Below are positions 1 through 52,556 of a stretch of 64,000 nucleotides of DNA, piece by piece (positions within the stretch are counted from its first letter, which is position 1; every line of letters begins with the position of its first letter). A program made the translations under genes and the position numbers. The notes beneath the pieces were generated by a model. That model was not told the DNA's origin and did not search any database. It saw nothing but the letters and a program-made list of their open reading frames with translations. Source of the stretch: an uncultured archaeon (GTDB lineage: Archaea > Asgardarchaeota > Lokiarchaeia > Sigyniarchaeales > SOKP01); assembly GCA_964388035.1 (NCBI GenBank), contig CAYLZE010000008.1, forward strand, positions 3,176-67,175. Direction: 5' to 3'.

Positions 1-195
1 TTTCTTTCACTTTAAATTTAAAGAGATGTAAAAGAATGTTACTTTTGAGTAAAAGCAATGAATAATCATTTAAGATTTGGTTTTTTTTGAATTTATTTTT
101 TCGAAATTACATGACTCATTTAAAAATGAATTACAATTATACATGAAATAAATTCTATCCATGACTAAATTTATTATATATATAGGTGAAGAAAA

Positions 196-1017
196 ATGAG
201 TCAAAAAATAAGTACCATAGCTATAATTGGCGCGGGATTTATGGGGCGGCAATTTATTGCAAAAAATGCGATTTTAGATTATAACGTTCGAGTTTTCGAT
301 GTTGAAAAAGAAGAAACAGCAAAATACGTCCGATCCATGGATCGAAAAAAAAAACGTAAAAACAAGACCGGAGACGTTTCTTTTCACGAAACGATACCAG
401 AGGCTGTTGCTGATGCGGATTTCATTATTGAAGCCGTTCCAGAAATTTTAGAGTTGAAACGTGAAATTTTTGCACAAATTGATAAAGCAGCTCCCCCTCA
501 TGCTGTCATTGCCACAAATAGCTCCTCGATTCCTGTTTCAAAAATTGAAGATGCAGTAGAACGAAGAGATAAAGTAATTAACGTCCATTTTTATAATTTA
601 ACCACCATTCCCATGGCAGATCTCATGAGAGGGACGCAAACCAGTGATGCAACCTTTGAAATAAGCAAGAATTGGGTGGAAAGCATGGAAATCACTCCTA
701 TCATAGTTAAGAAGGAGTGCTATGGATTCGTCTTTAATAGGATTTGGAGAGCTGTTAAAAAAGAATGCATCGAGATCTGGGCGGAAGGAAGTGCCGATAT
801 TGAAGAAGTAGATAAATCATGGAGGATATTTACGGGGATGGGCCTAGGACCTTATCAATTGATGGATGCGGTGGGGTTAGACGTGGTTTTAGATATTGAA
901 ATGTCTTATTATAAACACACTGGAGATCCCAGAGATAAACCCCCAGAAACCTTTAAGAAAAAAGTTGAGCGTGGAGAACTGGGACTAAAGACAAAAAAAG
1001 GATTTTATACTTATTAA
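196..1017 (+). CDS. 3-hydroxyacyl-CoA dehydrogenase family protein
   Basis: Rossmann GAGFMG, IIEAVPE, ATNSSS, HFYN, GFVFNR, MGLGP..LMD.VGLD, GELGLKT.KGFY motifs. Confidence 0.92.
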   Translation: MSQKISTIAIIGAGFMGRQFIAKNAILDYNVRVFDVEKEETAKYVRSMDRKKKRKNKTGDVSFHETIPEAVADADFIIEAVPEILELKREIFAQIDKAAPPHAVIATNSSSIPVSKIEDAVERRDKVINVHFYNLTTIPMADLMRGTQTSDATFEISKNWVESMEITPIIVKKECYGFVFNRIWRAVKKECIEIWAEGSADIEEVDKSWRIFTGMGLGPYQLMDAVGLDVVLDIEMSYYKHTGDPRDKPPETFKKKVERGELGLKTKKGFYTY

Positions 1018-39440: not shown

Positions 39441-42400
39441 TTATTCCTTATCAAGACCCTCTTTCTTTAATAAATCGTCTAACTTAACTTTAGCTTCTTT
39501 CTCTTCTTTTTTAGCTTCTTTCTCTACCGTTGGTTTTTCTTCAGAAGGTACTTTTTTTGTTTCATCAGTCTTTAATTCTGAAACCTTGACATATTTACCT
39601 TTTACTTTTTTCACTTTGGGTTTCGCTTTTTCCAGAGGGGTCTCAATCTTACGGATCAGTTTTCTTGCATACCAAATAGTAAAAAGCCAAATTCCTCCAA
39701 TTCCTATTAAGATTGATACAGTCATGACAACAGATGGGAAAGGAGGATCCAAGATATCTAAAGAAGTCTTACCTTCAGTTCTCACAATTTGTTTAGAAAG
39801 GACATTTTGTCCTTTAATAGTCACCGTAATATTCAACAAGTCATAGGTTGTATCAGGTACAAAAAAGTCTATAGTAATTGATGTAGATTCACCTGGTTTC
39901 AATCGAGCTAATTCATAATTATTTATGGCAACGATGGTAAAATTAATTCCCTTTTCCAATGCGATATTGGTCTCTAATATTGAAACTGTAGAATTCCCCG
40001 TATTTAATATAGCAAAAGTTAAAGTTCCATTTTCATTACGATACACGGCTTGATTCGGTAGAACATCAAAACCTAGAGAAAGTTCATTAAACTCGGAAGT
40101 AATATTGATAGGAATTTCATGACTTTTACTTAGAAAATTACTATCTCCTGGCCAATATAACCGAAATTTAAAATCTTCCATAATATATAGGGGCACAGTA
40201 TCAATTTCAAATTCTAATATTCCCTCCGAATCAGATCTTACACCTGTAATGTTTATCCAAGACGTTCCATCAAAATACTCGCAGGAAACTATTTTACCCG
40301 CTAAGATTTCATTAAACTCTGTCTCCATGATGGAAGAAATAGTTACCGTATCTCCTTCAATGGGATTTTGGGGCGTATAAGTAATATTTACAAATTTGCT
40401 ATTTATTTTAAAAATATTTGATATATTTGAACTTATTAAAATACTCATGTAATTTTCATCAAATAGGTTCACGATAAAATAGGTTTTCTTCGGAGAATAC
40501 AGACATTCATCTCTTTCAAACACTTTTGTGATAGTATTACTTGAAGTATTGAATGAAGTCTTGGTTGAAATGATTTCTCCTTCGAAATCATGTTCATCTG
40601 CAAGCGTAATTAAAGAATATTGTGGACTATCAAAATAACCCACATTTTTTCCTTCAATATATATTAATACTCTTGTTTTTACTCCGCCTAACCTCATGGG
40701 ACAATTAACACCTTTCCAGGATTTTGTTGCGGGATCATATTGAGGCATCATCATGCTTAAATTATACATGATGCTATCTTGATTGTTGCCAAAATATTTC
40801 AATAACACGGTATCGCTTGAATTTTCGGCGATAATCCATTGATCATTTGCCAAAGACAAGAGTTGTACTTTAATCCTGACATTGAGATCGGTTATGTCAT
40901 CTCTGTTTTGAAGCAAAATTTTAAATGTAATTTCCTCTCCTGGATTCAAAATGCTCTCGTTTTGTCTGAATGAATTTAAAGATACGTCAAAATCTAAACT
41001 TCCTAACTCGTAAGAAAATAATTGGTTGATAGAAAGATTACTAATGGTATAATAATCAGGTCTGTTTGTACCGGTTGTTTCATTAACAGTAGCCATTAGG
41101 ATGGAATATTTATTAAGAATTCTCGTGATAAAATTTCCCTCAAGCACGTTACTTCCTACTTCGGGATAGAAAGTTGCTCCCGTTAAATCTACCTCATAAT
41201 CATTTATTTGAATGAAAACCTTTTTACAGCCAATTGCAGTACCATTAGTCCAAAAAAAGCCAATTTGGTAGCGCCCCAAAATGGGGATGGAAGTAGTGAT
41301 ATTAATGATAGTATTGTTAGAAAAATCATATTTCAAAAGGGAATCAATCAAAACACCATTATTAGAAAAGAGTTCTGCAGTGGGAACTCTCGTATTATTG
41401 GGATAAAAAAGAGTAGCATTCACACTTCCTCCGTCTGGAGCAATCCCAAATTCATCTTGAATGTATACGCTCAAAGACACGTTATCTCCATACATGAATC
41501 CTTCTGTTTCCCATAAAATGCCTTCAAAATTAATGAAACTATGCATTTGATTAATGGAATTATAGCTTGTCAAATTTAGCACGTAAGAGCCGTTATATAC
41601 GGGCATTGATACATTTATTAAGGCGGTGGTTAGAATTAATTTATTAAATAGAGGGTCGTCAGATAATTCTGAAGCACTCCCTATTTGATCGAGAACATCT
41701 CCATCAAGGGGGTTTGGTGTTGTTAGATTAAGGGGTGTCCAATAATTAGGAAATATAAACCAATATTCTGTAAAATTCCAGTTAGGATAATATTGATTTG
41801 GATCGAGCGTATCATTTAAAGTCCAGAGAGGAATATCGTTATAATATATCTTAAATAGGGCGGTGACATTTTCATATCTATAAATTTTAGCAAGGTAAGT
41901 CACGTTAAAAAGTAAACCTTTTGTAAGAGTGATATATCCTGTAAAATTAACAAAAAGTGTATTAAAGCGATCAGCTTCAATATAATCCGTAAGATCATGG
42001 AGCCATCGACCGCTTCCCCATTCCATTATATTAACATTACTTTCATTATATGGATAAACATCAATTCTTTGGTCAACAAGTGTTAAATTCTGTATTCTTA
42101 ACTCACCATTAAAATCGGAAGGCATATATCCTCGTGTAACGTTTAATTCAAAAGAACTTGCGTCTAATTGTGTAGATGTATATGGAGTCGAAGTAGTTTC
42201 AATTAACTTTTTCGCATTAGTCCACGTAACCCCATTATTGGTGGTTCTTTTTAATTGCTGTTCTAATTTTCCATCCCCAATTGATGCATCAGAAGGGATG
42301 GTAACTAAGCTATAGATTAAATCGCTCGAACTTGAGTTTATCACAATAAAATAATTTCCAATACCCAGGTTCACCGCATTAATTGAACTTAAATCAAAAT

Positions 42401-43601
42401 AAGTAATTCCATCCCCTTTAAAAGAATCTATCAAAATCGAACCTAAATATTGAGAATAATCAGGAGATATCATAGTTTTTTGTAATCCATCGCTATCCCG
42501 CACGATAGAATTATTAGACCTGTAAAGACTAATATTTAATTTAACTCCAGAAGCCATCGTTCGATTTAACGTTCGTATCCAGGCATTAAATCCATTAATG
42601 GTCGTTCCTTCACCTCTCAAATCAAATTCTAATGCCACATAAGATTCACTAGTAATCGGAAGATCAAAAGCTAATGCTGCTTGCAAATCAAATTCGAATA
42701 ATGAGACATTAAAAGTGGAAGAATGATCCGTTCTGTTAAAATAGAACTGAATTAGAGAAATATCACTCGAATTAATGAAATCCAAATTGGTGTTTATGAA
42801 TCTCTCATCTATTTGCTGGGTTATGGGAAGACTACTATTTATTGGAATAATATCGGTTATATTAATCCATGCGCCTTGAGTGACGTTCCAAGCTTTAATG
42901 GTAAGATTTGCATCTAAAGTGATATTGAATTTTATGGAGAGGAGAAATCCAAGAATTTCTGTACGATTAAACACGGTTTCCACGGTTCCACTTGGGGGGA
43001 CATTATCAGTTGAGGTAGATTTGGAAAAATTCGCATTAATAGAAAAATTTAAAGCTCCATTTTGAGAAGTAAGGTTCCAATAAGTGATAAGATTAGAAAT
43101 GGCTGTAAAATCTTCGTTTAATGGATTTTGACCTTCAAGTAGATTCAGACCCGATGTTGGTTTATTATATGGATATAAAATCATCTTGCTAGGATCCAAA
43201 CTGGTTAAAGCATTGTCATTTTCAATGACATGTTCCGTGGTGTAATTATTATTGAACGTGAAATTAAAATCTCCATGACTGAGATTCATGTAATTATCGG
43301 GGACGGATATATTAAAAGATCCCAAATTATTATTGGAATAGGATTGATTTACAAAATAAGTCCTAATAGTTTGATTATCACCGTGTCCAGTAATACTTTC
43401 ATTTGCTTTTAAATTAGAATTGGAACTGGTAAGATCATTTTTATTATATTCTTTATCAGGAATAGAAGAATCATTATTAATCGATTCTTGATTTGGATTC
43501 AACATTCCAAAATTGTTAAATTGACTAAGAGTTGTTAATAAGAAAATTGCTACGATAAAACTTACACTAAAGACCTTAAAAGCTTTTTTTTTCGATAGCA
43601 A
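39441..43601 (-). CDS. Large (1386 aa) membrane-anchored extracellular glycoprotein
   Basis: N-terminal basic + hydrophobic signal; numerous N-x-S/T sequons; Ig/CARDB-like unit near the C-terminus; TM VVMTVSILIGIGGIWLFTIWY; Lys/Glu-rich tail. Confidence 0.8.
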   Translation of the reverse strand: MLSKKKAFKVFSVSFIVAIFLLTTLSQFNNFGMLNPNQESINNDSSIPDKEYNKNDLTSSNSNLKANESITGHGDNQTIRTYFVNQSYSNNNLGSFNISVPDNYMNLSHGDFNFTFNNNYTTEHVIENDNALTSLDPSKMILYPYNKPTSGLNLLEGQNPLNEDFTAISNLITYWNLTSQNGALNFSINANFSKSTSTDNVPPSGTVETVFNRTEILGFLLSIKFNITLDANLTIKAWNVTQGAWINITDIIPINSSLPITQQIDERFINTNLDFINSSDISLIQFYFNRTDHSSTFNVSLFEFDLQAALAFDLPITSESYVALEFDLRGEGTTINGFNAWIRTLNRTMASGVKLNISLYRSNNSIVRDSDGLQKTMISPDYSQYLGSILIDSFKGDGITYFDLSSINAVNLGIGNYFIVINSSSSDLIYSLVTIPSDASIGDGKLEQQLKRTTNNGVTWTNAKKLIETTSTPYTSTQLDASSFELNVTRGYMPSDFNGELRIQNLTLVDQRIDVYPYNESNVNIMEWGSGRWLHDLTDYIEADRFNTLFVNFTGYITLTKGLLFNVTYLAKIYRYENVTALFKIYYNDIPLWTLNDTLDPNQYYPNWNFTEYWFIFPNYWTPLNLTTPNPLDGDVLDQIGSASELSDDPLFNKLILTTALINVSMPVYNGSYVLNLTSYNSINQMHSFINFEGILWETEGFMYGDNVSLSVYIQDEFGIAPDGGSVNATLFYPNNTRVPTAELFSNNGVLIDSLLKYDFSNNTIINITTSIPILGRYQIGFFWTNGTAIGCKKVFIQINDYEVDLTGATFYPEVGSNVLEGNFITRILNKYSILMATVNETTGTNRPDYYTISNLSINQLFSYELGSLDFDVSLNSFRQNESILNPGEEITFKILLQNRDDITDLNVRIKVQLLSLANDQWIIAENSSDTVLLKYFGNNQDSIMYNLSMMMPQYDPATKSWKGVNCPMRLGGVKTRVLIYIEGKNVGYFDSPQYSLITLADEHDFEGEIISTKTSFNTSSNTITKVFERDECLYSPKKTYFIVNLFDENYMSILISSNISNIFKINSKFVNITYTPQNPIEGDTVTISSIMETEFNEILAGKIVSCEYFDGTSWINITGVRSDSEGILEFEIDTVPLYIMEDFKFRLYWPGDSNFLSKSHEIPINITSEFNELSLGFDVLPNQAVYRNENGTLTFAILNTGNSTVSILETNIALEKGINFTIVAINNYELARLKPGESTSITIDFFVPDTTYDLLNITVTIKGQNVLSKQIVRTEGKTSLDILDPPFPSVVMTVSILIGIGGIWLFTIWYARKLIRKIETPLEKAKPKVKKVKGKYVKVSELKTDETKKVPSEEKPTVEKEAKKEEKEAKVKLDDLLKKEGLDKE

Positions 43602-45207: not shown

Positions 45208-46386
45208 TTGCGAGACACTACCAAAGTAGAAGACTGTGTTGCCTTACTTGATGTTTCACGTTCAATGTTAAAAACAGACTTCAAACCGAATAGATTAAAT
45301 AATGCAATTGAGACCTTAAAAAATTTCATTCACTCCAAGTTATCCTTGGATCCAAGCGATAAAATTGCCCTTATCACGTTTGGTGGGAATGCGAAAAGAT
45401 TAGTACCTTTTACAAATGAAGAAACTATTTTGATAAATTCATTCCAAAAAATTCGCGTGAGTGGAAGGGGTAACATATCTCAAGGAATTTCTTTTTCTAT
45501 CCAATTATTAATAAAGGAAATGCAAAAGCTAGGAGGAAAAATTTCAAGAATCTTCATTCTCACGGATAATAAAATAATTGAAGAAGATGGAAAATTAAAC
45601 GAAATTGTTGAAGTAGCAAAGGGATTGGGCGTTTATGTGGATGTGTGTCAAATAGGGAAAACAGAGGATTATCGTCAAAGCAAATTGAAACTCCTAACTC
45701 GGCAGACCGGAGGGGAATATGGATATTTCAATAATACTAAAGCGTTAGTCAATTCTGGAAAATCATTCGCTTCCAAAAAAGAATTAAAATTTTCACGCGA
45801 TTATTTCGCTCGGGATAATAAAAGTGAAAACGCGCCCTTATTAAATGAGATCGCCCTACCATTAAAGCGACCCTCTGTTTTAGAATTAAAAGCCATGATA
45901 AATAGTCACGATACGGATTTAGAAAAATGTCAGATATGTCATTCCATGAAATCTCCGGTAACTAATGCCGATCTCTATTCCGAGGGGCGCATATGCCCTT
46001 CATGTGAGCATCCCATGCATTTATCGTGTGCAGCCATGTGGGCAAAGGGGACAGAATATTCCGAAAGCGTGTTTCGATGCCCGTTCTGTTATTACCTATT
46101 AAAAATACCTACCTCCGCCCTCAAGATTGCTGAGATAAGGCAAGCCAATGCTCAAAACACTACTAAAGACACTTTGAAAGAACATAAACAAACAAGAATG
46201 AAATTAATCCCTAATGAAGAAGTTGAATCGATTTACGGTTCGTGTAGTTATTGTCGAAATATATTCATGGGAGAGCACGATGTATATCAATGCGAGCAGT
46301 GCGGGGCTTATTATCACGAACCTTGTCTCCAAAAAATGTTCAAAGAGCTAAAAAGTTGCCGTAATTGTGGTGCTCAAATAGTATAA
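45208..46386 (+). CDS. vWA (Ssl1/Rpn10-like) protein with two C4HC3 RING-type zinc fingers
   Basis: DVSRSM..TDFKPNRL, TRQTGGEY; CQIC..CPSC..H..C..W..CPFC; CSYC..CEQC..H..C..CRNC. Confidence 0.8.
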   Translation: MRDTTKVEDCVALLDVSRSMLKTDFKPNRLNNAIETLKNFIHSKLSLDPSDKIALITFGGNAKRLVPFTNEETILINSFQKIRVSGRGNISQGISFSIQLLIKEMQKLGGKISRIFILTDNKIIEEDGKLNEIVEVAKGLGVYVDVCQIGKTEDYRQSKLKLLTRQTGGEYGYFNNTKALVNSGKSFASKKELKFSRDYFARDNKSENAPLLNEIALPLKRPSVLELKAMINSHDTDLEKCQICHSMKSPVTNADLYSEGRICPSCEHPMHLSCAAMWAKGTEYSESVFRCPFCYYLLKIPTSALKIAEIRQANAQNTTKDTLKEHKQTRMKLIPNEEVESIYGSCSYCRNIFMGEHDVYQCEQCGAYYHEPCLQKMFKELKSCRNCGAQIV

Positions 46387-46519: not shown

Positions 46520-48583
46520 TTGATTACGATGCCTAACGAGGATAAACGAAAATGGGTGGTGACTTCGGCTTGGCCTTATGTAAACGCTACACCGCATTTA
46601 GGCACGATGGTCGGAAGTGTCTTATCTGCTGACGTTTTTGCCAGATTCCTACGATTATTGGGAGATGAAGTGGTGTTTGTTTCGGGATCCGATGTTCATG
46701 GAACTCCCGTGGCAGTAGAGGCAAAAAAGCAAGGGATTTCTGCTGAGGAATTAGCGGAAAGAAATCACGAAATAACCGCTTCATTATTCAAGCGTTGGAA
46801 TATATCTTATGATAATTACACGCAAACCCATAATCCAACCCATATTGAATTTTGTCAAGATTTTTATCTTGAAGTGCAAAAAAATGGGTTCGTGGAAGAG
46901 AAGGAAATCGAATCGTTATATTGTGAAAAGGATGCCATGTATCTCCCAGATAGATTCGTAGAAGGGGAATGTCCTTATTGTGGAGCAGAAAATGCAAGAG
47001 GGGATCAATGTGATAAATGTCAAAAATTATTAACTCCTTTAGAATTAGTAAAACCTCGATGTGCGATTTGTGGTAATCCTCCTGTTATTCAGAAAACTAG
47101 ACACTGGTATTTACTTTTTCCAAAACTACAAGATCAATTGAAAGCGTTTATTGAACAAAATGAGATCATTCCACAAAATGCCAAGCAATTATGTCTCAAT
47201 AGTATTGAAGAAGGATTGCCCGAACGTGCTATCACCCGAGATCTGGAATGGGGCATTCCAGCAAAATTCAAGGGAGCTGAGGGTAAAACTATTTATGTTT
47301 GGTTTGAAGCAGTACTGGGATACATTTCTGCAGTAAAGGAGTGGGCGGATAAGATACTTAAAGTGCCCGAAAAATTCGATTACTTCTGGAAGGATCCTAA
47401 CACGAGAACGGTTTATTTTATTGGAAAGGATAATATCATTTTTCATTTGATTGTTTTTCCGGGACTTATAATGGCTTACAATAAAAATAAAAAGAAAGAT
47501 GAAAGACTGGTGCTTCCCTATAACGTTTCTTCAACGGAATTTCTCATGTATGAAAATGATAAGTTTTCTAAATCCAGAGGAGTAGGAATATGGATTGATG
47601 AAGCATTGGAATTAGCCCCTTTAGACTATTGGCGGTTCAATTTGATTTATAACAGACCCGAAAAGAGCGATACGTCTTTTTTATGGTCTGAATTTGAAAA
47701 TGATATTAAGATGCTAAATGATGTGATTGGAAACTTCATCCACCGCACGTTAACTTTTATCAATAAGCAATTCAAGAGCAAAATTCCCGAACAATTAAGC
47801 TTCGATGAAAAAGATAAGGCGTTCGCAGTAAAAATTAATTCTATCGCTAAAACTATTGGAAACTTGATGGAGCAATTTGAATTAAGAAATGCTCTCCGAG
47901 AGATCGTTAATTTTGCGCGAGACGGAAATGTCTATTTAAACGATAAAGCGCCATGGCATCTGATTAGCAAGGAGAAAACTTTAGCGGGACAAGTTTTTAA
48001 CTTATGCGGACAGGCAGTTTATGCTCTTGCAGTTCTACTAGCACCATTTATACCGGATACATCGCAGAGGATCTTAGAATATTTGAATTATTCTAAGGGA
48101 TTGGATCACATTGAGTGGAATAGCATATCAGAAAAAGTATTGGAAAATGGGCATTCAATAAAGAAACCACAACCGTTATTTACAAAATTAGATATTGATG
48201 AATTGAAAGAAAAACTAAATGACATTAGGAAGGATAAAAGTAAAATGGTAGAAAAACAGGAAGATATTTCATATAATGAATTTAAAAGATTGGATATCAG
48301 AATTGCTCAAATACTCGAAGTCGAATCCGTTCCAAAAACAGAGCATTTATTAAAATTGACCATTGATATTGGTACAGAAAAAAGAACTCTAGTAGCAGGG
48401 TTGGCTCAACATTATAAACCAAATGAATTAATTAACAAAAAAATTGTTGTTCTTACAAATTTAGAACCGAAAAAACTGAGAGGAATAACAAGTCAAGGGA
48501 TGCTTTTAGCTGCAGTAGAAGGAGATAAGGTAGCTATTTTAACACCTGATTCAGAAATTCCCCCGGGAGCCAAGATAGAATAG
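46520..48583 (+). CDS. metG: Methionine--tRNA ligase with C-terminal tRNA-binding (Trbp111-like) domain
   Basis: SAWPYVN..PHLG, Zn knuckles, YVWFEA, GKDN..FH, KFSKS, SQGMLL. Confidence 0.97.
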   Translation: MITMPNEDKRKWVVTSAWPYVNATPHLGTMVGSVLSADVFARFLRLLGDEVVFVSGSDVHGTPVAVEAKKQGISAEELAERNHEITASLFKRWNISYDNYTQTHNPTHIEFCQDFYLEVQKNGFVEEKEIESLYCEKDAMYLPDRFVEGECPYCGAENARGDQCDKCQKLLTPLELVKPRCAICGNPPVIQKTRHWYLLFPKLQDQLKAFIEQNEIIPQNAKQLCLNSIEEGLPERAITRDLEWGIPAKFKGAEGKTIYVWFEAVLGYISAVKEWADKILKVPEKFDYFWKDPNTRTVYFIGKDNIIFHLIVFPGLIMAYNKNKKKDERLVLPYNVSSTEFLMYENDKFSKSRGVGIWIDEALELAPLDYWRFNLIYNRPEKSDTSFLWSEFENDIKMLNDVIGNFIHRTLTFINKQFKSKIPEQLSFDEKDKAFAVKINSIAKTIGNLMEQFELRNALREIVNFARDGNVYLNDKAPWHLISKEKTLAGQVFNLCGQAVYALAVLLAPFIPDTSQRILEYLNYSKGLDHIEWNSISEKVLENGHSIKKPQPLFTKLDIDELKEKLNDIRKDKSKMVEKQEDISYNEFKRLDIRIAQILEVESVPKTEHLLKLTIDIGTEKRTLVAGLAQHYKPNELINKKIVVLTNLEPKKLRGITSQGMLLAAVEGDKVAILTPDSEIPPGAKIE

Positions 48584-48584
48584 C

Positions 48585-49832
48585 TCATACTTTTAAAGAA
48601 AAAATCGGAGTTAATTTAGCTAGAATTTCTCCTAATTCTAGATACATGGACTTTAAAACCACAGCTCTCCCACGATATTTGAACTCCAGGTCTGCAACAT
48701 CGCGAATTATCTTTAACCTCTCTGCTTTTGATAAGGAACAGACAAAATATCTCTGATCTTTATATTCCATGACCTCAATTACATTTTTTATATCTGGTAA
48801 TGCATATCCTCCTCCGTGTGGTAGGATATTGGCATTTACCAGTTGATCTGAAACTTCTAATTCTTTTGCTTGGAGATCAAAATTTAAACTTTTTATGATT
48901 GTTGACGAGAAATTCGGTTTACCTTTTAATAAATAACAGGAAATATTTGCCCTTAAAGCAACGGGGAAAATGCTCGATTGGACATAACCACTCATTAAAT
49001 CCGTACAATTAGCTCCTAAATACATATTATTAAAGTCATTTAAAAATTGATGGAATTGATTGCTGATTGCTTGATATTTACCAAAAATGTGTTCTGCTAT
49101 TAATTCTCTTTTAACTTTTGAGAATTTACTTACTTTTTGATTGAAGCGGTAATAGTCTTTTGCATTTGAATCTAAAAGCAGATGTTGGATTGTTCCAAAT
49201 ACCGTTGATTCTCTTATAGAAAGATCCTTTAAAGTCTGTGATTTGTCCACGTAAAGGCCCATGCCATATGTATCATCCTTAAATTCGGGTACAGAACCGT
49301 GAATGAAGAATATATAGGGAGGTAACTTAATATCAGAATAATTTTGTATTTTAAAGCAATTTATAAAGTGATTTGAAACATTAAAATCCCACGTGATTTT
49401 AATATCCCATCCATTTAATGAATAGTAAAGAGGGGAAGTTTTTATTTCGTCAATTTTTTTTATAATTTCTAACGCTTCTGGCTTTTCCTCCAAACCACCC
49501 ACTAAAATTCCACAATAATTTGGTTTTGTATTAAGAAATATGGCATGTTCTTTTCCATTTCCCCAGTTCAGTTTTCCTCCATATCCAAATCCGGAATTCC
49601 AACGGAATGGATTCTTTGAGATGGTCTCATCGGGGGAGGAAATAAAGCAAGCTTTAGGGGTAAACCCGTATTTTTCTTGAATAAGGTGAATTTGAGCCAA
49701 GCCATAAGCCATGTTCTTTTTACATAAAATAGAAGCACCATCATTAATTCCCGTAGAAAAAATGAATCTACTGGCTCTGTTCAATAATTCTGATTTAGAT
49801 AATTTCACTAAGTTCTGTGTTGCGATGGAAAT
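48585..49832 (-). CDS. Highly divergent RtcB-fold (RNA ligase/guanylyltransferase-like) protein; probable ATT start at 49832 (tracked GTG 49808)
   Basis: Colinear RtcB motifs: PD, YCG, SNHF, IHGS, HQ, PHGGG, YR...VV, L.P...K at the C-terminus. Confidence 0.7.
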   Translation of the reverse strand: MSIATQNLVKLSKSELLNRASRFIFSTGINDGASILCKKNMAYGLAQIHLIQEKYGFTPKACFISSPDETISKNPFRWNSGFGYGGKLNWGNGKEHAIFLNTKPNYCGILVGGLEEKPEALEIIKKIDEIKTSPLYYSLNGWDIKITWDFNVSNHFINCFKIQNYSDIKLPPYIFFIHGSVPEFKDDTYGMGLYVDKSQTLKDLSIRESTVFGTIQHLLLDSNAKDYYRFNQKVSKFSKVKRELIAEHIFGKYQAISNQFHQFLNDFNNMYLGANCTDLMSGYVQSSIFPVALRANISCYLLKGKPNFSSTIIKSLNFDLQAKELEVSDQLVNANILPHGGGYALPDIKNVIEVMEYKDQRYFVCSLSKAERLKIIRDVADLEFKYRGRAVVLKSMYLELGEILAKLTPIFSLKV

Positions 49833-49902
49833 GAAAGATCCACCTCCGTAGTTTTATTTATGTACAATTAAGTATTTATATATACGCATTATATATTTAA
49901 GA

Positions 49903-50553
49903 TTGACCGTGTTAAATTACAATATGGACCAGAATATGGTTTTGTATGACGATTTCAAAGGTATCCTATCGAATGGATCTTTTACTGGTTGTTCAATCAT
50001 AACGAAATGTCAGGATTCATCTAATTCCATCATTTTTTCTGATAACATAACCATTTCGGAAGATCAGAAAATTGTGATTAAAGAGGGATTGAAAATTGGT
50101 TTTAGTTTAAATTTAAATAAGGAAACCGCTTTTTCTGAAAAGAGAGATTTTACCTGGGAAGAAGATTTTACTTCTTTAGAATATTCCGTATTAATTCCCG
50201 AACGTGTCATGGAATTATACGATGAAGGGCGATTTTCTGAATCATATCCTTTCACTATTAATTTATTGCATACTGCGGGGCTTTTTTTTCGAACAGCAAA
50301 TGGAGGAAATTTAAACCATCTGGATTTTGTTATTGGAGAAATAATAAAAAATCCCATTTGTTTAATCGAAAATGGGATTATAGTAGCAGATAGAGTTGTT
50401 ATTGATGATAGAGGAGATCCCGTTTTTTATGATTGCATTATAGTTGGGAGAGACCAAGAAGATAATCTTTCTGTTTCATATGAACCATTTGCAAACGTTT
50501 CAGAAGGACTGATTTACATAATCATTTTAGGAAAAGAATCCTTAAGGGAATGA
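49903..50553 (+). CDS. Hypothetical beta-rich acidic protein, possible two-fold internal repeat
   Basis: IIFSDNITISEDQKIVIKEGLKIG vs IIVADRVVIDDRGDPVFYDCIIVG; 10 nt upstream of the ATPase gene. Confidence 0.6.
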   Translation: MTVLNYNMDQNMVLYDDFKGILSNGSFTGCSIITKCQDSSNSIIFSDNITISEDQKIVIKEGLKIGFSLNLNKETAFSEKRDFTWEEDFTSLEYSVLIPERVMELYDEGRFSESYPFTINLLHTAGLFFRTANGGNLNHLDFVIGEIIKNPICLIENGIIVADRVVIDDRGDPVFYDCIIVGRDQEDNLSVSYEPFANVSEGLIYIIILGKESLRE

Positions 50554-50563
50554 AAATATTTGA

Positions 50564-51826
50564 TTGAAAGGGTTAATAAGAATGCTATTATATGAAAATA
50601 AAAAGAAGAAATTTTTACGAATACTCCAAATCGGGATAAATCCCTTTCAAAAATTTGTATCTACAGGAGAAATCAAGGAAACCCTTGGAATGGTTCCCTC
50701 AAGGAAAGATTTTATGGATGCAATCATAGATCTTATCGAGAGTAATGAAAATTTCATTCTCCCAATCATTGGAGATACTGGAAGAGGAAAGACCCACTTG
50801 TTCTGGGCATTACGAAATGAATTAACCTACAATTATATCGTCCATATTTCCCCAGAGAATCTTTATCGCAAGTTTTATTATAATATATATTCCGAATTCA
50901 TAGAAACTTTAGGGATAAATGTGCTACGAAGTATAACAAATCAATTATGTAATCAATGGGGCGCCCTGGAGAGAAAATTTGGATTTTTTTATTTAGCCGA
51001 TATAGAGAAAGTGCGAAAGATGGCTTTTAACACGTTAGAATCGCAATTTAAAAATAAGGAAGCCTTAAAGGATGTCATTCAAACCATAACTTCTCATCAA
51101 TTAGATCCTTATAGAAGGTTGGATGCGGAAAATTGGTTATTAGGGAATATCATGGATTTCAAAGAGCTTTCAATGTTAAACGTGCAAAATGATCTAAGTA
51201 AAAGTATCTATGCCTATACCATGTTAAAATTATTGATCGAAAATGCAAAACTTGAAAGTATTGTTTTCATTGACGATTTTGATCGAATTCTCTCTCTTTT
51301 AAAATTCGAAGAAGAAGTGGAAGAAGTTTTCGATCCAAGTTGGTTATATGGCAAAAATGAAGAACAATCTATTTCCAGAAGTAACACCATCATGAAAGTT
51401 ATTGATAAGATTTCTGAATTAGTGCAGATACAGGGGTTAAAGTGCATTATAACTCTCCGGTCTCTGGATGCTCTTGAACAAATTAAGGAATTATTCAGCA
51501 AAACACATTTAGAAACCTTATCTCTCTTTAAACAACCCTTATTTTTGACAGATTTTAACAGAAATGATATTTTTTATTTTTATAGAGAGTATATAAAAAT
51601 CTTTTTGGACGATATTGGGTTTCCAGAATTATTAGATTTGAATACAGATCCATACTATCCTCTTACTGAAAAAATCCTTCATGACTTTTTTTCAATTTCC
51701 CAAGGAAATCCAAGAAATGTAATTAAGACATTAATCAACATTTTTAACGAAATAATCATGAGTAATGAAAGTCTTGAAGATATTATCGCAAATTATGAAA
51801 AAATAGCTCATCCTAAATCGTTTTGA
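50564..51826 (+). CDS. P-loop AAA+ ATPase with helical insertion
   Basis: Walker A GDTGRGKT, Walker B IVFIDDFD, sensor-2-like GNPR. Confidence 0.8.
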   Translation: MKGLIRMLLYENKKKKFLRILQIGINPFQKFVSTGEIKETLGMVPSRKDFMDAIIDLIESNENFILPIIGDTGRGKTHLFWALRNELTYNYIVHISPENLYRKFYYNIYSEFIETLGINVLRSITNQLCNQWGALERKFGFFYLADIEKVRKMAFNTLESQFKNKEALKDVIQTITSHQLDPYRRLDAENWLLGNIMDFKELSMLNVQNDLSKSIYAYTMLKLLIENAKLESIVFIDDFDRILSLLKFEEEVEEVFDPSWLYGKNEEQSISRSNTIMKVIDKISELVQIQGLKCIITLRSLDALEQIKELFSKTHLETLSLFKQPLFLTDFNRNDIFYFYREYIKIFLDDIGFPELLDLNTDPYYPLTEKILHDFFSISQGNPRNVIKTLINIFNEIIMSNESLEDIIANYEKIAHPKSF

Positions 51827-52556
51827 GGAATATCTTGATGTAAATGTCTATTTCATTCAAGATCATTTCTTTAACCTCCTTTTCCCATTTCGCATTCTCA
51901 ACCAGCAACTTGAAGGAATTTAATGATCCGAATTTTAATGGATTATCAAATATAATAACAAGAAGCTTACGTATCATTCTTTTATTTAATTTTTTACGAA
52001 ATTCAGCTTCATTTAAAATATCGAATAAGGCCTTTTCCTCCTTTACATGCTCATTAATTATCTTAGAAGTAAGCTCCCCAATTCTTGAATTATTATCTTC
52101 CAATAAAAGAATGATATCCTTTAAAAGTTCATTATTGATCTCTTTTAAATTACTTATAAAATTAAGAGCACTGATTCTGATTAAGTCATAATCCTCCTTC
52201 AAACTAACTTGGAATAATGACATGTTTTGATCTGAAATGGGATTCATATCCGAAATCTTATCTAATGCTTGAATTATCTCATTTCGAATCCATCTATCGG
52301 AGTTAAAATAAGAATCATTAAGATAATCGATGTATTTTTTTGGAAGTTTTTCTTTTTGTCCAATATTCCCTAGTAGATAAATTATATTTATCTTTACTTT
52401 TTCAAGGAATGAAGAATTGAAAGAGCTTATTAAAAAATCTATTACTTGTAAGTGATCTGAGCTAGCATCTTGCCCTAAAGTGAGTAAGACATCATTAATC
52501 TTTTCAGGGTTTTTCTCTTTCTTAATGCTTTTCAATATTTCATCTAGTGATTTCAA
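51813..52556 (-). CDS. HEAT/ARM-like alpha-solenoid protein
   Basis: Repeats of type VKINIIYLLGNIG, WIRNEIIQALDKI, IRISALNFI. Confidence 0.7.
   Translation of the reverse strand: MKSLDEILKSIKKEKNPEKINDVLLTLGQDASSDHLQVIDFLISSFNSSFLEKVKINIIYLLGNIGQKEKLPKKYIDYLNDSYFNSDRWIRNEIIQALDKISDMNPISDQNMSLFQVSLKEDYDLIRISALNFISNLKEINNELLKDIILLLEDNNSRIGELTSKIINEHVKEEKALFDILNEAEFRKKLNKRMIRKLLVIIFDNPLKFGSLNSFKLLVENAKWEKEVKEMILNEIDIYIKIFLKTI

Follow-up and report, generated by a model that had tools for sequence, protein, structure and literature searches.

The question raised by the 64,000-nucleotide stretch of DNA analysed here (contig CAYLZE010000008.1 of an uncultured Lokiarchaeial archaeon, referred to throughout as the window) is what enzyme is encoded by an open reading frame (ORF) that converges on metG, the gene for methionyl-tRNA synthetase. 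A first-pass annotation, made from the letters alone, had read this gene as a cryptic and highly divergent enzyme of the RtcB fold, based on a series of motifs colinear with those of RtcB ligases, all of which are present in the translation in the order and with the spacing given there. What is new here is a second, deep-branching sequence family that shares the RtcB fold but has a changed active site, RtcB itself being known. We assign a probability of roughly 0.6 to the reading that the RtcB-like gene is a member of a deep sister branch of the RtcB 3′-phosphate/5′-OH ligases, a paralogue of the RtcB–archease pair, and that its product carries out RtcB-type chemistry through a histidine-bound nucleoside monophosphate (His-NMP).

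The AlphaFold2 model of the RtcB-like protein, built with an alignment of 61 family sequences, has a pLDDT (predicted local distance difference test) of 97.4 and a pTM (predicted template modelling) score of 0.94. When this model was compared with the PDB by Foldseek, the top 12 listed matches were all RtcB entries from human, zebrafish, Pyrococcus horikoshii and Thermus thermophilus (E 1.6e-7 to 1.1e-5, probability 1.00), and the next listed match had an E value of 0.049. VIA-align superposed 306–323 residues on RtcB structures with Z 19.1–22.0, a root-mean-square deviation of 3.3–3.8 Å and 12–15% identity, covering model residues 6–407, while the best non-RtcB chain reached Z 4.8. The predicted structure thus bears out the RtcB fold over this whole range, and from the superposition at Z 22 together with the residue-level profile alignments described below, we infer that the active-site side chains would converge on one site.

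A profile was needed to recover the relationship in sequence searches, as a single-sequence phmmer search against the PDB returned noise only (triosephosphate isomerase and antibody chains). The four best PDB matches of the 61-member family profile are RtcB chains (E 0.004–0.013), in alignments that pair NHF with GNHF, IHgS with HTGS, HGgG with HGAG, YRG with AYK, and the C-terminal LxP..K with RxRP..K. Alignment by hhalign, which was usable only in local mode with a separate N-terminal run (the global-mode alignment being meaningless), matched the family to an alignment of 31 canonical Asgard RtcBs with an E value of 2.2e-4 over 226 columns. The N-terminal 140 residues alone gave a weak match (E 0.086) in which GFGYGG is paired with GFPIGG and NxCG with INCG. 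The RtcB-like family is homologous to RtcB, and the likeness is beyond chance.

These alignments allow the active site to be compared residue by residue (Table 1; RtcB numbers refer to the P. horikoshii enzyme, and conservation was counted over 81 full-length cluster representatives at 50% identity). In RtcB, Mn1 is held by Cys98, His234 and His329, and Mn2 by Asp95, Cys98 and His203, with Cys98 bridging both ions and His404 being the covalently guanylylated residue (PMC8051266). Asn202 holds the 5′-OH nucleophile and contacts the GMP phosphate (PMC8051266, PMC9745838), Glu206 and Lys480 read the guanine, whose O6 is touched by Lys480 (PMC9745838), and Arg238 (Arg189 in Escherichia coli) clamps the phosphates of the 5′-OH strand (PMC8051266, PMC9745838). 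The first-pass annotation held that the Cys/His/His/His metal set and the catalytic histidine are retained; the profile alignments agree, the cysteine being placed by the weak N-terminal alignment, and all these positions are near-invariant. Its pairing of Asp60 with the PD motif of RtcB held up in part: an aspartate is kept at this position in most representatives, but the N-terminal hhalign run places it a few residues off.

Mean column identity in the 61-sequence alignment is 32%, with G77, H147, F148, H170, H253, G265 and H331 invariant and D23, D60, C99, N146, R234, P330, G332, G334 and R379 among the near-invariant positions. This pattern and the counts in Table 1 show the residues of the catalytic core to be under strict selection. 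The successive spacings between the aligned motifs from His170 to Lys406 are 64, 19, 78, 47 and 28 residues, compared with 62, 32, 75, 47 and 29 in the canonical RtcB of the same genome, a close agreement apart from one difference of 13 residues, and the segment between the cysteine and NHF spans 48 residues instead of 105, making it about 57 residues shorter.

The departures from RtcB concern the surroundings of this core. Replacement of the DxxC aspartate, the RKGA lysine and PGSMG had been claimed from the sequence, and the family alignment confirms it: asparagine (Asn97) stands at the Asp95 position, and neither RKGA nor PGxMG has a conserved counterpart in the family. The position of the guanine-reading Glu206 is occupied by Asn150 in this protein and varies among the representatives (Asn in 24, Asp in 15 and Glu in 13 of the 81), and no conserved arginine was found among them at the position of Arg238. 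The positions after His170 are variable (A, G or P at 173; P, S, R or K at 174) and are followed by a conserved Glu175 (65/81); the alignable region does not extend to RtcB Arg190 and Gln194. Four residues after His331 the protein carries Tyr335 (Tyr in 61/81), and eight residues after it the position is variable; we take these two positions to correspond to RtcB Arg408 and Arg412. Because a second-metal ligand has changed, a base-reading residue has become variable and the strand-clamping arginine is missing, the nucleotide, the substrate or both are likely to differ from those of RtcB, and the retained core within a remodelled pocket argues for an active enzyme with such a different specificity.

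A simpler explanation would be that the protein is a fast-evolving canonical RtcB, that is, a tRNA-splicing ligase missed by the databases, with the same substrate and the same dependence on archease. The shared fold and catalytic core speak for this, but several results make it very improbable. Scans of the protein against Pfam (to E 10), NCBIfam, PADLOC and PHROGs gave no meaningful match; PF01139, the RtcB family, has a gathering threshold of 27 bits, which the window protein does not reach, without a match even at E≤10, and among the 61 relatives only six match it, all below the threshold (best E 0.0071). The placement outside canonical RtcB, on which the novelty suggested by the first-pass annotation depended, therefore stands. 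The low identity to RtcB structures, the shortened segment between Cys99 and His147, and the lack of a conserved arginine at the Arg238 position point the same way.

In addition, the cell already has a tRNA ligase of the usual kind. As had been proposed for checking, the genome was found to encode a canonical RtcB (contig C23:14016-15323; 490 aa, 552.7 bits against PF01139) directly beside an archease (C23:15353-15763), which is the only archease of the genome, none being encoded in the window. No archease was seen beside members of the RtcB-like family in the loci examined. As canonical RtcB lies next to archease in the same genome, the RtcB-like gene represents a paralogous second family, and its product is not the cell's tRNA ligase. 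The same holds more widely: of 61 Asgard genomes sampled, 59 carry canonical RtcB, whereas the RtcB-like family is patchy, with 19 genomes, all of which also carry RtcB. The family occurs in 15 of the 27 high-quality genomes of this sample and in all six from the window's own family.

Two observations concern the canonical RtcBs of this sample. In five genomes (G003, G026, G035, G044 and G053), RtcB lies in a frame of 973–1015 aa with the Pfam match split into positions 1–50 and 45–426, which in sequence terms reads as the signature of an intein inserted in RtcB. In a sixth (G047; L029:1480-1800), an otherwise intact RtcB carries, between PD and AHQGYGF, an insertion of about 10 aa that contains an in-frame TGA, which may reflect a sequencing error, disruption of the gene or recoding.

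The family is large and unnamed. A word-indexed search of 5.8 billion proteins found 670 relatives, the best 120 of which share about 60% identity and have lengths of around 414 aa; within these 120, all relatives with a source name are called "hypothetical protein" and nearly all come from metagenome-assembled genomes of Promethearchaeota/Asgard archaea. An exhaustive phmmer search of 1.84 billion cluster representatives yielded 231 clusters at 50% identity. A pattern-based scan of one genome per GTDB species, seeded by a 12-sequence alignment, confirmed at least 419 loci, including most Lokiarchaeia sampled, and among the best 80 of these, for which labels were seen, nearly all are labelled Promethearchaeota or another Asgard group. 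A bacterial member used as query gave 250 relatives; the named ones are all "hypothetical" and belong to Deltaproteobacteria/Myxococcota (Polyangiaceae, Haliangium sp.), Anaerolineae, "Zipacnadales", Bathyarchaeota and Thorarchaeota. The forecast that annotation pipelines would call such a protein hypothetical is thus matched by every source that names a relative. Its distribution is patchy yet wide, taking in Asgard archaea, Bathyarchaeota, Myxococcota and Chloroflexota, and a FastTree phylogeny of 94 members contains several deep clades. No description of this divergent RtcB-like family was found in the literature searched.

Gene neighbourhoods in more divergent lineages are more informative on function, two lineages being counted as separate where their RtcB-like proteins share less than 60% identity. 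In nine independent lineages, a co-directional phosphoesterase gene starts −3 to 52 nt downstream of the RtcB-like gene. This is a triosephosphate isomerase (TIM) barrel protein of the AP_endonuc_2 family in three lineages (11 loci), for which MJ1311 is the closest match and EndoIV and the cobamide phosphodiesterase CbiR are matched more weakly, a GDPD glycerophosphodiesterase in four lineages (six loci) and an HD phosphohydrolase in two lineages (two loci). In one Asgard family (f4), the gene immediately upstream encodes a 525-aa Metallophos protein of the CpdA/SpdA/GpdQ type, which in two others (f13 and f20) is encoded no more than a few genes away; the sole PDB sequence matches of this protein are entries of the glycerophosphodiesterase GpdQ. 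Since four unrelated families of metal-dependent phosphoesterases serve as operon partners, the pattern looks like non-orthologous replacement of one role, which might be to cut a phosphodiester or open a cyclic phosphate and in this way to supply or remove the substrate of an RtcB-type reaction.

Other neighbours recur less widely. ATP-grasp and AstE/AspA genes adjoin the RtcB-like gene in four loci; a divergent TrmI-like methyltransferase gene next to PolB is found in 12 archaeal loci, mainly of one lineage; and PolX, an NTPase and the RNA 3′-phosphate cyclase RtcA lie nearby in a single locus (L048). In two separate lineages (L129:7258-7893, L136 and L165), the RtcB-like gene directly adjoins a same-strand gene for a membrane protein of the VIT1-like Fe/Mn transporter family. 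A role in defence islands was considered and rejected, as it would be based on a single bacterial member beside CHAT, TPR-AAA and integrase genes, with no PADLOC match.

RtcB-type chemistry is probably retained, as the conservation of the core suggests, and its course can be sketched by analogy. Briefly, the enzyme would bind a transition metal of the Mn type and a nucleoside triphosphate (NTP), and a covalent His331-NMP would form at the (bi)metal centre. The NMP would then move to a terminal phosphomonoester, or to an opened cyclic phosphate, to give an R-O-pp-N intermediate, on which a hydroxyl would act as the attacking group, creating a new phosphodiester with release of NMP. Alternatively, the reaction could stop at the capped intermediate. 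The departures described above (Asp95 to Asn, Glu206 to Asn, no equivalent of Arg238, and Tyr or variable residues after His331) imply that the substrate would not be the canonical pair of tRNA exons. The best single guess, which we hold tentatively and at a little short of even odds, is a specialised joining or capping of RNA or DNA ends carried out together with the phosphoesterase. The TrmI-like methyltransferase, RtcA and PolX of the locus mentioned above, and a possible tandem Sm-like protein in the window may be taken as RNA-related hints.

Several observations weigh against this reading, and the first group lies in the active site itself. Asp95 of RtcB, a ligand of Mn2 that also contacts the γ-phosphate of GTP, is replaced by asparagine in 71 of the 81 representatives (Asp in four), a change that could weaken or alter the use of metal and NTP, and a small subclade has no equivalent of Cys99 and shows HH instead of HQ. 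The missing counterpart of Arg238 would argue against a polynucleotide acceptor bound in the manner of RtcB. A rival explanation is that the metal site has been kept for a different reaction, such as that of a hydrolase (a cyclic phosphodiesterase, for instance), protein nucleotidylation, or the regulatory binding of NTP and metal without ligation. In its favour, RtcB itself has a 2′,3′-cyclic phosphodiesterase step (PMC8051266), the Asp-to-Asn change at the second metal site and the absence of RKGA and PGxMG show a remodelled pocket, and the cysteine is absent in some members. Such a switch is nevertheless improbable: the nucleophilic histidine and the nucleotide-pocket Phe, Tyr and Lys are kept, which would be difficult to account for if no covalent NMP step took place, and so is the asparagine that positions the attacking hydroxyl.

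The second group of adverse points concerns the context of the gene and the character of the protein. No neighbour is conserved across the whole RtcB-like family. The flanking genes in the window's own clade give little functional information, since the 82 Lokiarchaeial-clade loci compared are close kin. The bacterial members sit among envelope genes: in two mutually syntenic loci of deltaproteobacterial type, the RtcB-like gene follows a BamA-like gene and precedes one for a polytopic membrane protein, with PEGA and TPR genes close by. GDPD and GpdQ-like enzymes are typical small-molecule phosphodiesterases. The median isoelectric point (pI) of the family is 6.4, compared with 8.55 for the canonical Asgard RtcBs, the window protein having a value of 8.9. 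Net charge and pI were also tried as a proxy for RNA binding and discarded as not discriminating, with an acidic family median on one side and the value of the window protein on the other.

The envelope setting of the bacterial members and the acidic family median, together with the missing strand-clamping arginine, the close downstream GDPD and MJ1311/CbiR/EndoIV-like genes, the GpdQ-matching Metallophos protein and the adjoining ATP-grasp and AstE/AspA genes, speak for a rival in which RtcB-type chemistry would be directed at a substrate other than nucleic acid (a glycerophospho or inositol-phospho compound, a lipid head group or an envelope polymer), the protein acting as an NTP-driven phosphodiester synthase or, paired with a phosphodiesterase, as a head-group exchange enzyme. 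Against this, all RtcBs characterised so far work on the ends of nucleic acids, proteins of the HD, Metallophos and EndoIV-like kinds are also classic enzymes of nucleic-acid end healing, and there are the RNA-related neighbours listed above (TrmI-like protein, RtcA, PolX and the possible Sm-like protein); moreover, a Metallophos orthologue and GDPD paralogues are encoded elsewhere in the window's own genome, unlinked to the RtcB-like gene. We regard this explanation as unlikely. Taken more broadly, as any small-molecule, lipid or polymer phosphoester being the target, it is somewhat less unlikely though still doubtful, and in its most specific form, a first RtcB-fold enzyme using His-NMP or activated phosphate on glycerophospho- or inositol-phospho-diesters in lipids, solutes or envelope polymers with GDPD, GpdQ-like or EndoIV-like partners, it is slightly less likely again. 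If true, it would amount to a new route to biological phosphodiesters, independent of CDP-alcohols, in Asgard archaea, Bathyarchaeota, Myxococcota and Chloroflexota. Joining or capping of nucleic-acid ends by RtcB-type chemistry remains the preferred reading.

In the window and its clade, the RtcB-like gene lies in a syntenic block (Table 1) with an M20 peptidase gene, a VWA/RING protein gene and metG, which converges on it, on one side, and genes for a divergent 216-aa protein, a 405–420-aa P-loop NTPase and a HEAT-repeat protein on the other. metG is a neighbour without a shown functional link to the RtcB-like gene. The AlphaFold2 model of the 216-aa protein (pLDDT 78.5) consists of two tandem small β-barrels, for which Sm/LSm proteins make up nearly all of the best PDB matches, with Z values of 5–6.8 that are weak and within the range of common arrangements. 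Two further genes in this region were noted. The VWA-domain protein (45208-46386, plus strand) has Ssl1-like (TFIIH p44-like) and RING/PHD-type zinc-finger matches, a eukaryote-like architecture, and a 1386-aa ORF (39441-43601, minus strand) has no Pfam match, although 57 related loci have a homologous long ORF in the equivalent syntenic position.

The ends of the RtcB-like gene were also considered. Its stop codon, TGA, occupies 48587-48585, and a single base (48584) separates it from the end of the convergent metG ORF, in agreement with the 1-nt distance noted at first pass. The start at 49832 adopted there is an ATT codon, and the first standard start in the frame is GTG at 49808. The in-frame peptide upstream of this GTG still aligns with the N-termini of homologues, most of which are 414 aa long with an ATG start about 16 codons ahead of a conserved "ELL"; an ATG at this position is missing in this genome and in its closest relative (L049, 68% identity). 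The start could therefore be ATT 49832 or GTG 49808, a non-standard start codon being possible, and the choice has no effect on the rest of the analysis.

Table 1. The RtcB-like gene, its motifs and aligned active-site residues, and its neighbours in the window. Motif residues are taken from the translation of the RtcB-like ORF; RtcB residues follow P. horikoshii, for which the numbers Phe204 and Tyr451 are our own.
Feature	Position	Strand	Residues	Assignment and evidence	Kept (of 81)
RtcB-like ORF	48585..49808	-		407 aa from GTG 49808; possibly 415 aa from ATT 49832 (ORF list)	
GGAGGTG, Shine-Dalgarno-like	49841..49847	-		8 nt upstream of ATT 49832; read from the sequence	
SPD motif			58-60		
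Asp60 of PD motif	49629..49631	-	60		Asp 76
GFGYGG motif			73-78		
PNYCG motif			96-100		
Asn97-Tyr98-Cys99	49512..49520	-	97-99	Cys99 = RtcB Cys98, Asn97 = RtcB Asp95; weak N-terminal hhalign, E 0.086	Cys99 76
SNHF motif			145-148		
Asn146-His147-Phe148	49365..49373	-	146-148	= RtcB Asn202-His203-Phe204; hmmsearch and hhalign	78, 81, 79
IHGS motif			169-172		
His170 of IHGS	49299..49301	-	170	= RtcB His234; profile and hhalign	81
Arg234	49107..49109	-	234	aligned with Arg of the RtcB ANRQ helix motif; hhalign	78
FHQ motif			252-254		
His253 of FHQ	49050..49052	-	253	= RtcB His329; hhalign	81
YLGA			263-266		
PVALRA			282-287		
LPHGGGY motif			329-335		
His331 of PHGGGY	48816..48818	-	331	= RtcB His404 (His of HGAG/HGSG); profile and hhalign	80
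YRGRAVV motif			378-384		
Tyr378-Arg379	48672..48677	-	378-379	aligned with RtcB AYK, Tyr378 = RtcB Tyr451; profile and hhalign	Tyr 61 and Phe 10; Arg 71
AKLTPIFSLKV			397-407		
Lys406, penultimate residue	48591..48593	-	406	= RtcB Lys480; hhalign	Lys 42, Arg 12, rest mostly alignment gaps
metG, methionyl-tRNA synthetase	46520..48583	+		Pfam tRNA-synt_1g, E 6.5e-143; adjacent in 80/82 loci	
216-aa protein, divergently transcribed	49903..50553	+		matches no known family; in 72/82 loci	
P-loop NTPase, 420 aa	50564..51826	+		directly downstream of the 216-aa gene; weak KAP_NTPase/AAA matches; in 66/82 loci	
HEAT-repeat protein	51813-52556	-		converges on the 420-aa NTPase; part of the conserved Lokiarchaeial block	

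Three known systems help to place the family, the closest being RtcB itself (PF01139; P. horikoshii PH1602, T. thermophilus TTHA1785 and human RTCB). The two share the fold of the whole protein (Z 19–22 over about 320 residues), the colinear series of PD, GFxxGG, xxCG, NHF, HxGS, an Arg helix, H(Q/N), HG(G/A)G, Y(R/K) and a C-terminal Lys, and the window protein keeps residues aligned with the Cys and the three His that bind metal in RtcB, with its nucleophilic His and with the Asn responsible for holding the attacking group. In contrast to RtcB, the window protein falls below every Pfam and NCBIfam threshold at 12–15% identity, is about 80 residues shorter, has Asn in place of both Asp95 and Glu206 and lacks RKGA and PGxMG, and its gene co-exists with canonical RtcB instead of lying next to archease. 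To our knowledge, the RtcB fold has so far comprised one sequence family, all characterised members of which act on the 3′-phosphate ends of nucleic acids.

A precedent for extra RtcB-type enzymes with specialised substrates encoded beside accessory factors is provided by bacterial RtcB paralogues such as RtcB2 of the RtcB2–PrfH ribosome-repair module. RtcB2 is treated in papers as an RtcB ligase, and we take it to fall within PF01139. The family described here differs in lying outside PF01139, in its altered second-metal ligand and in having phosphoesterase genes as neighbours rather than PrfH, RtcA or RtcR.

The genomic arrangement is reminiscent of heal-and-seal RNA repair, in which a phosphoesterase is paired with a ligase, as in Pnkp/Hen1 with its Metallophos phosphatase domain. 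Likewise, many lineages couple the RtcB-like gene translationally to that of a metal-dependent phosphoesterase (HD, Metallophos, EndoIV-like or GDPD), although GDPD is not known to be an RNA-healing enzyme. Unlike in those pairs, the ligase-type component here is of the RtcB fold and not of the ATP-dependent Rnl/DNA-ligase type, and a kinase or methyltransferase module is not consistently present beside it. A second, divergent family of the RtcB fold would extend RtcB chemistry to a new substrate or nucleotide; it gives a conserved "hypothetical protein" a testable function, and its recurrent coupling to four unrelated phosphoesterase families is a starting point for biochemistry.

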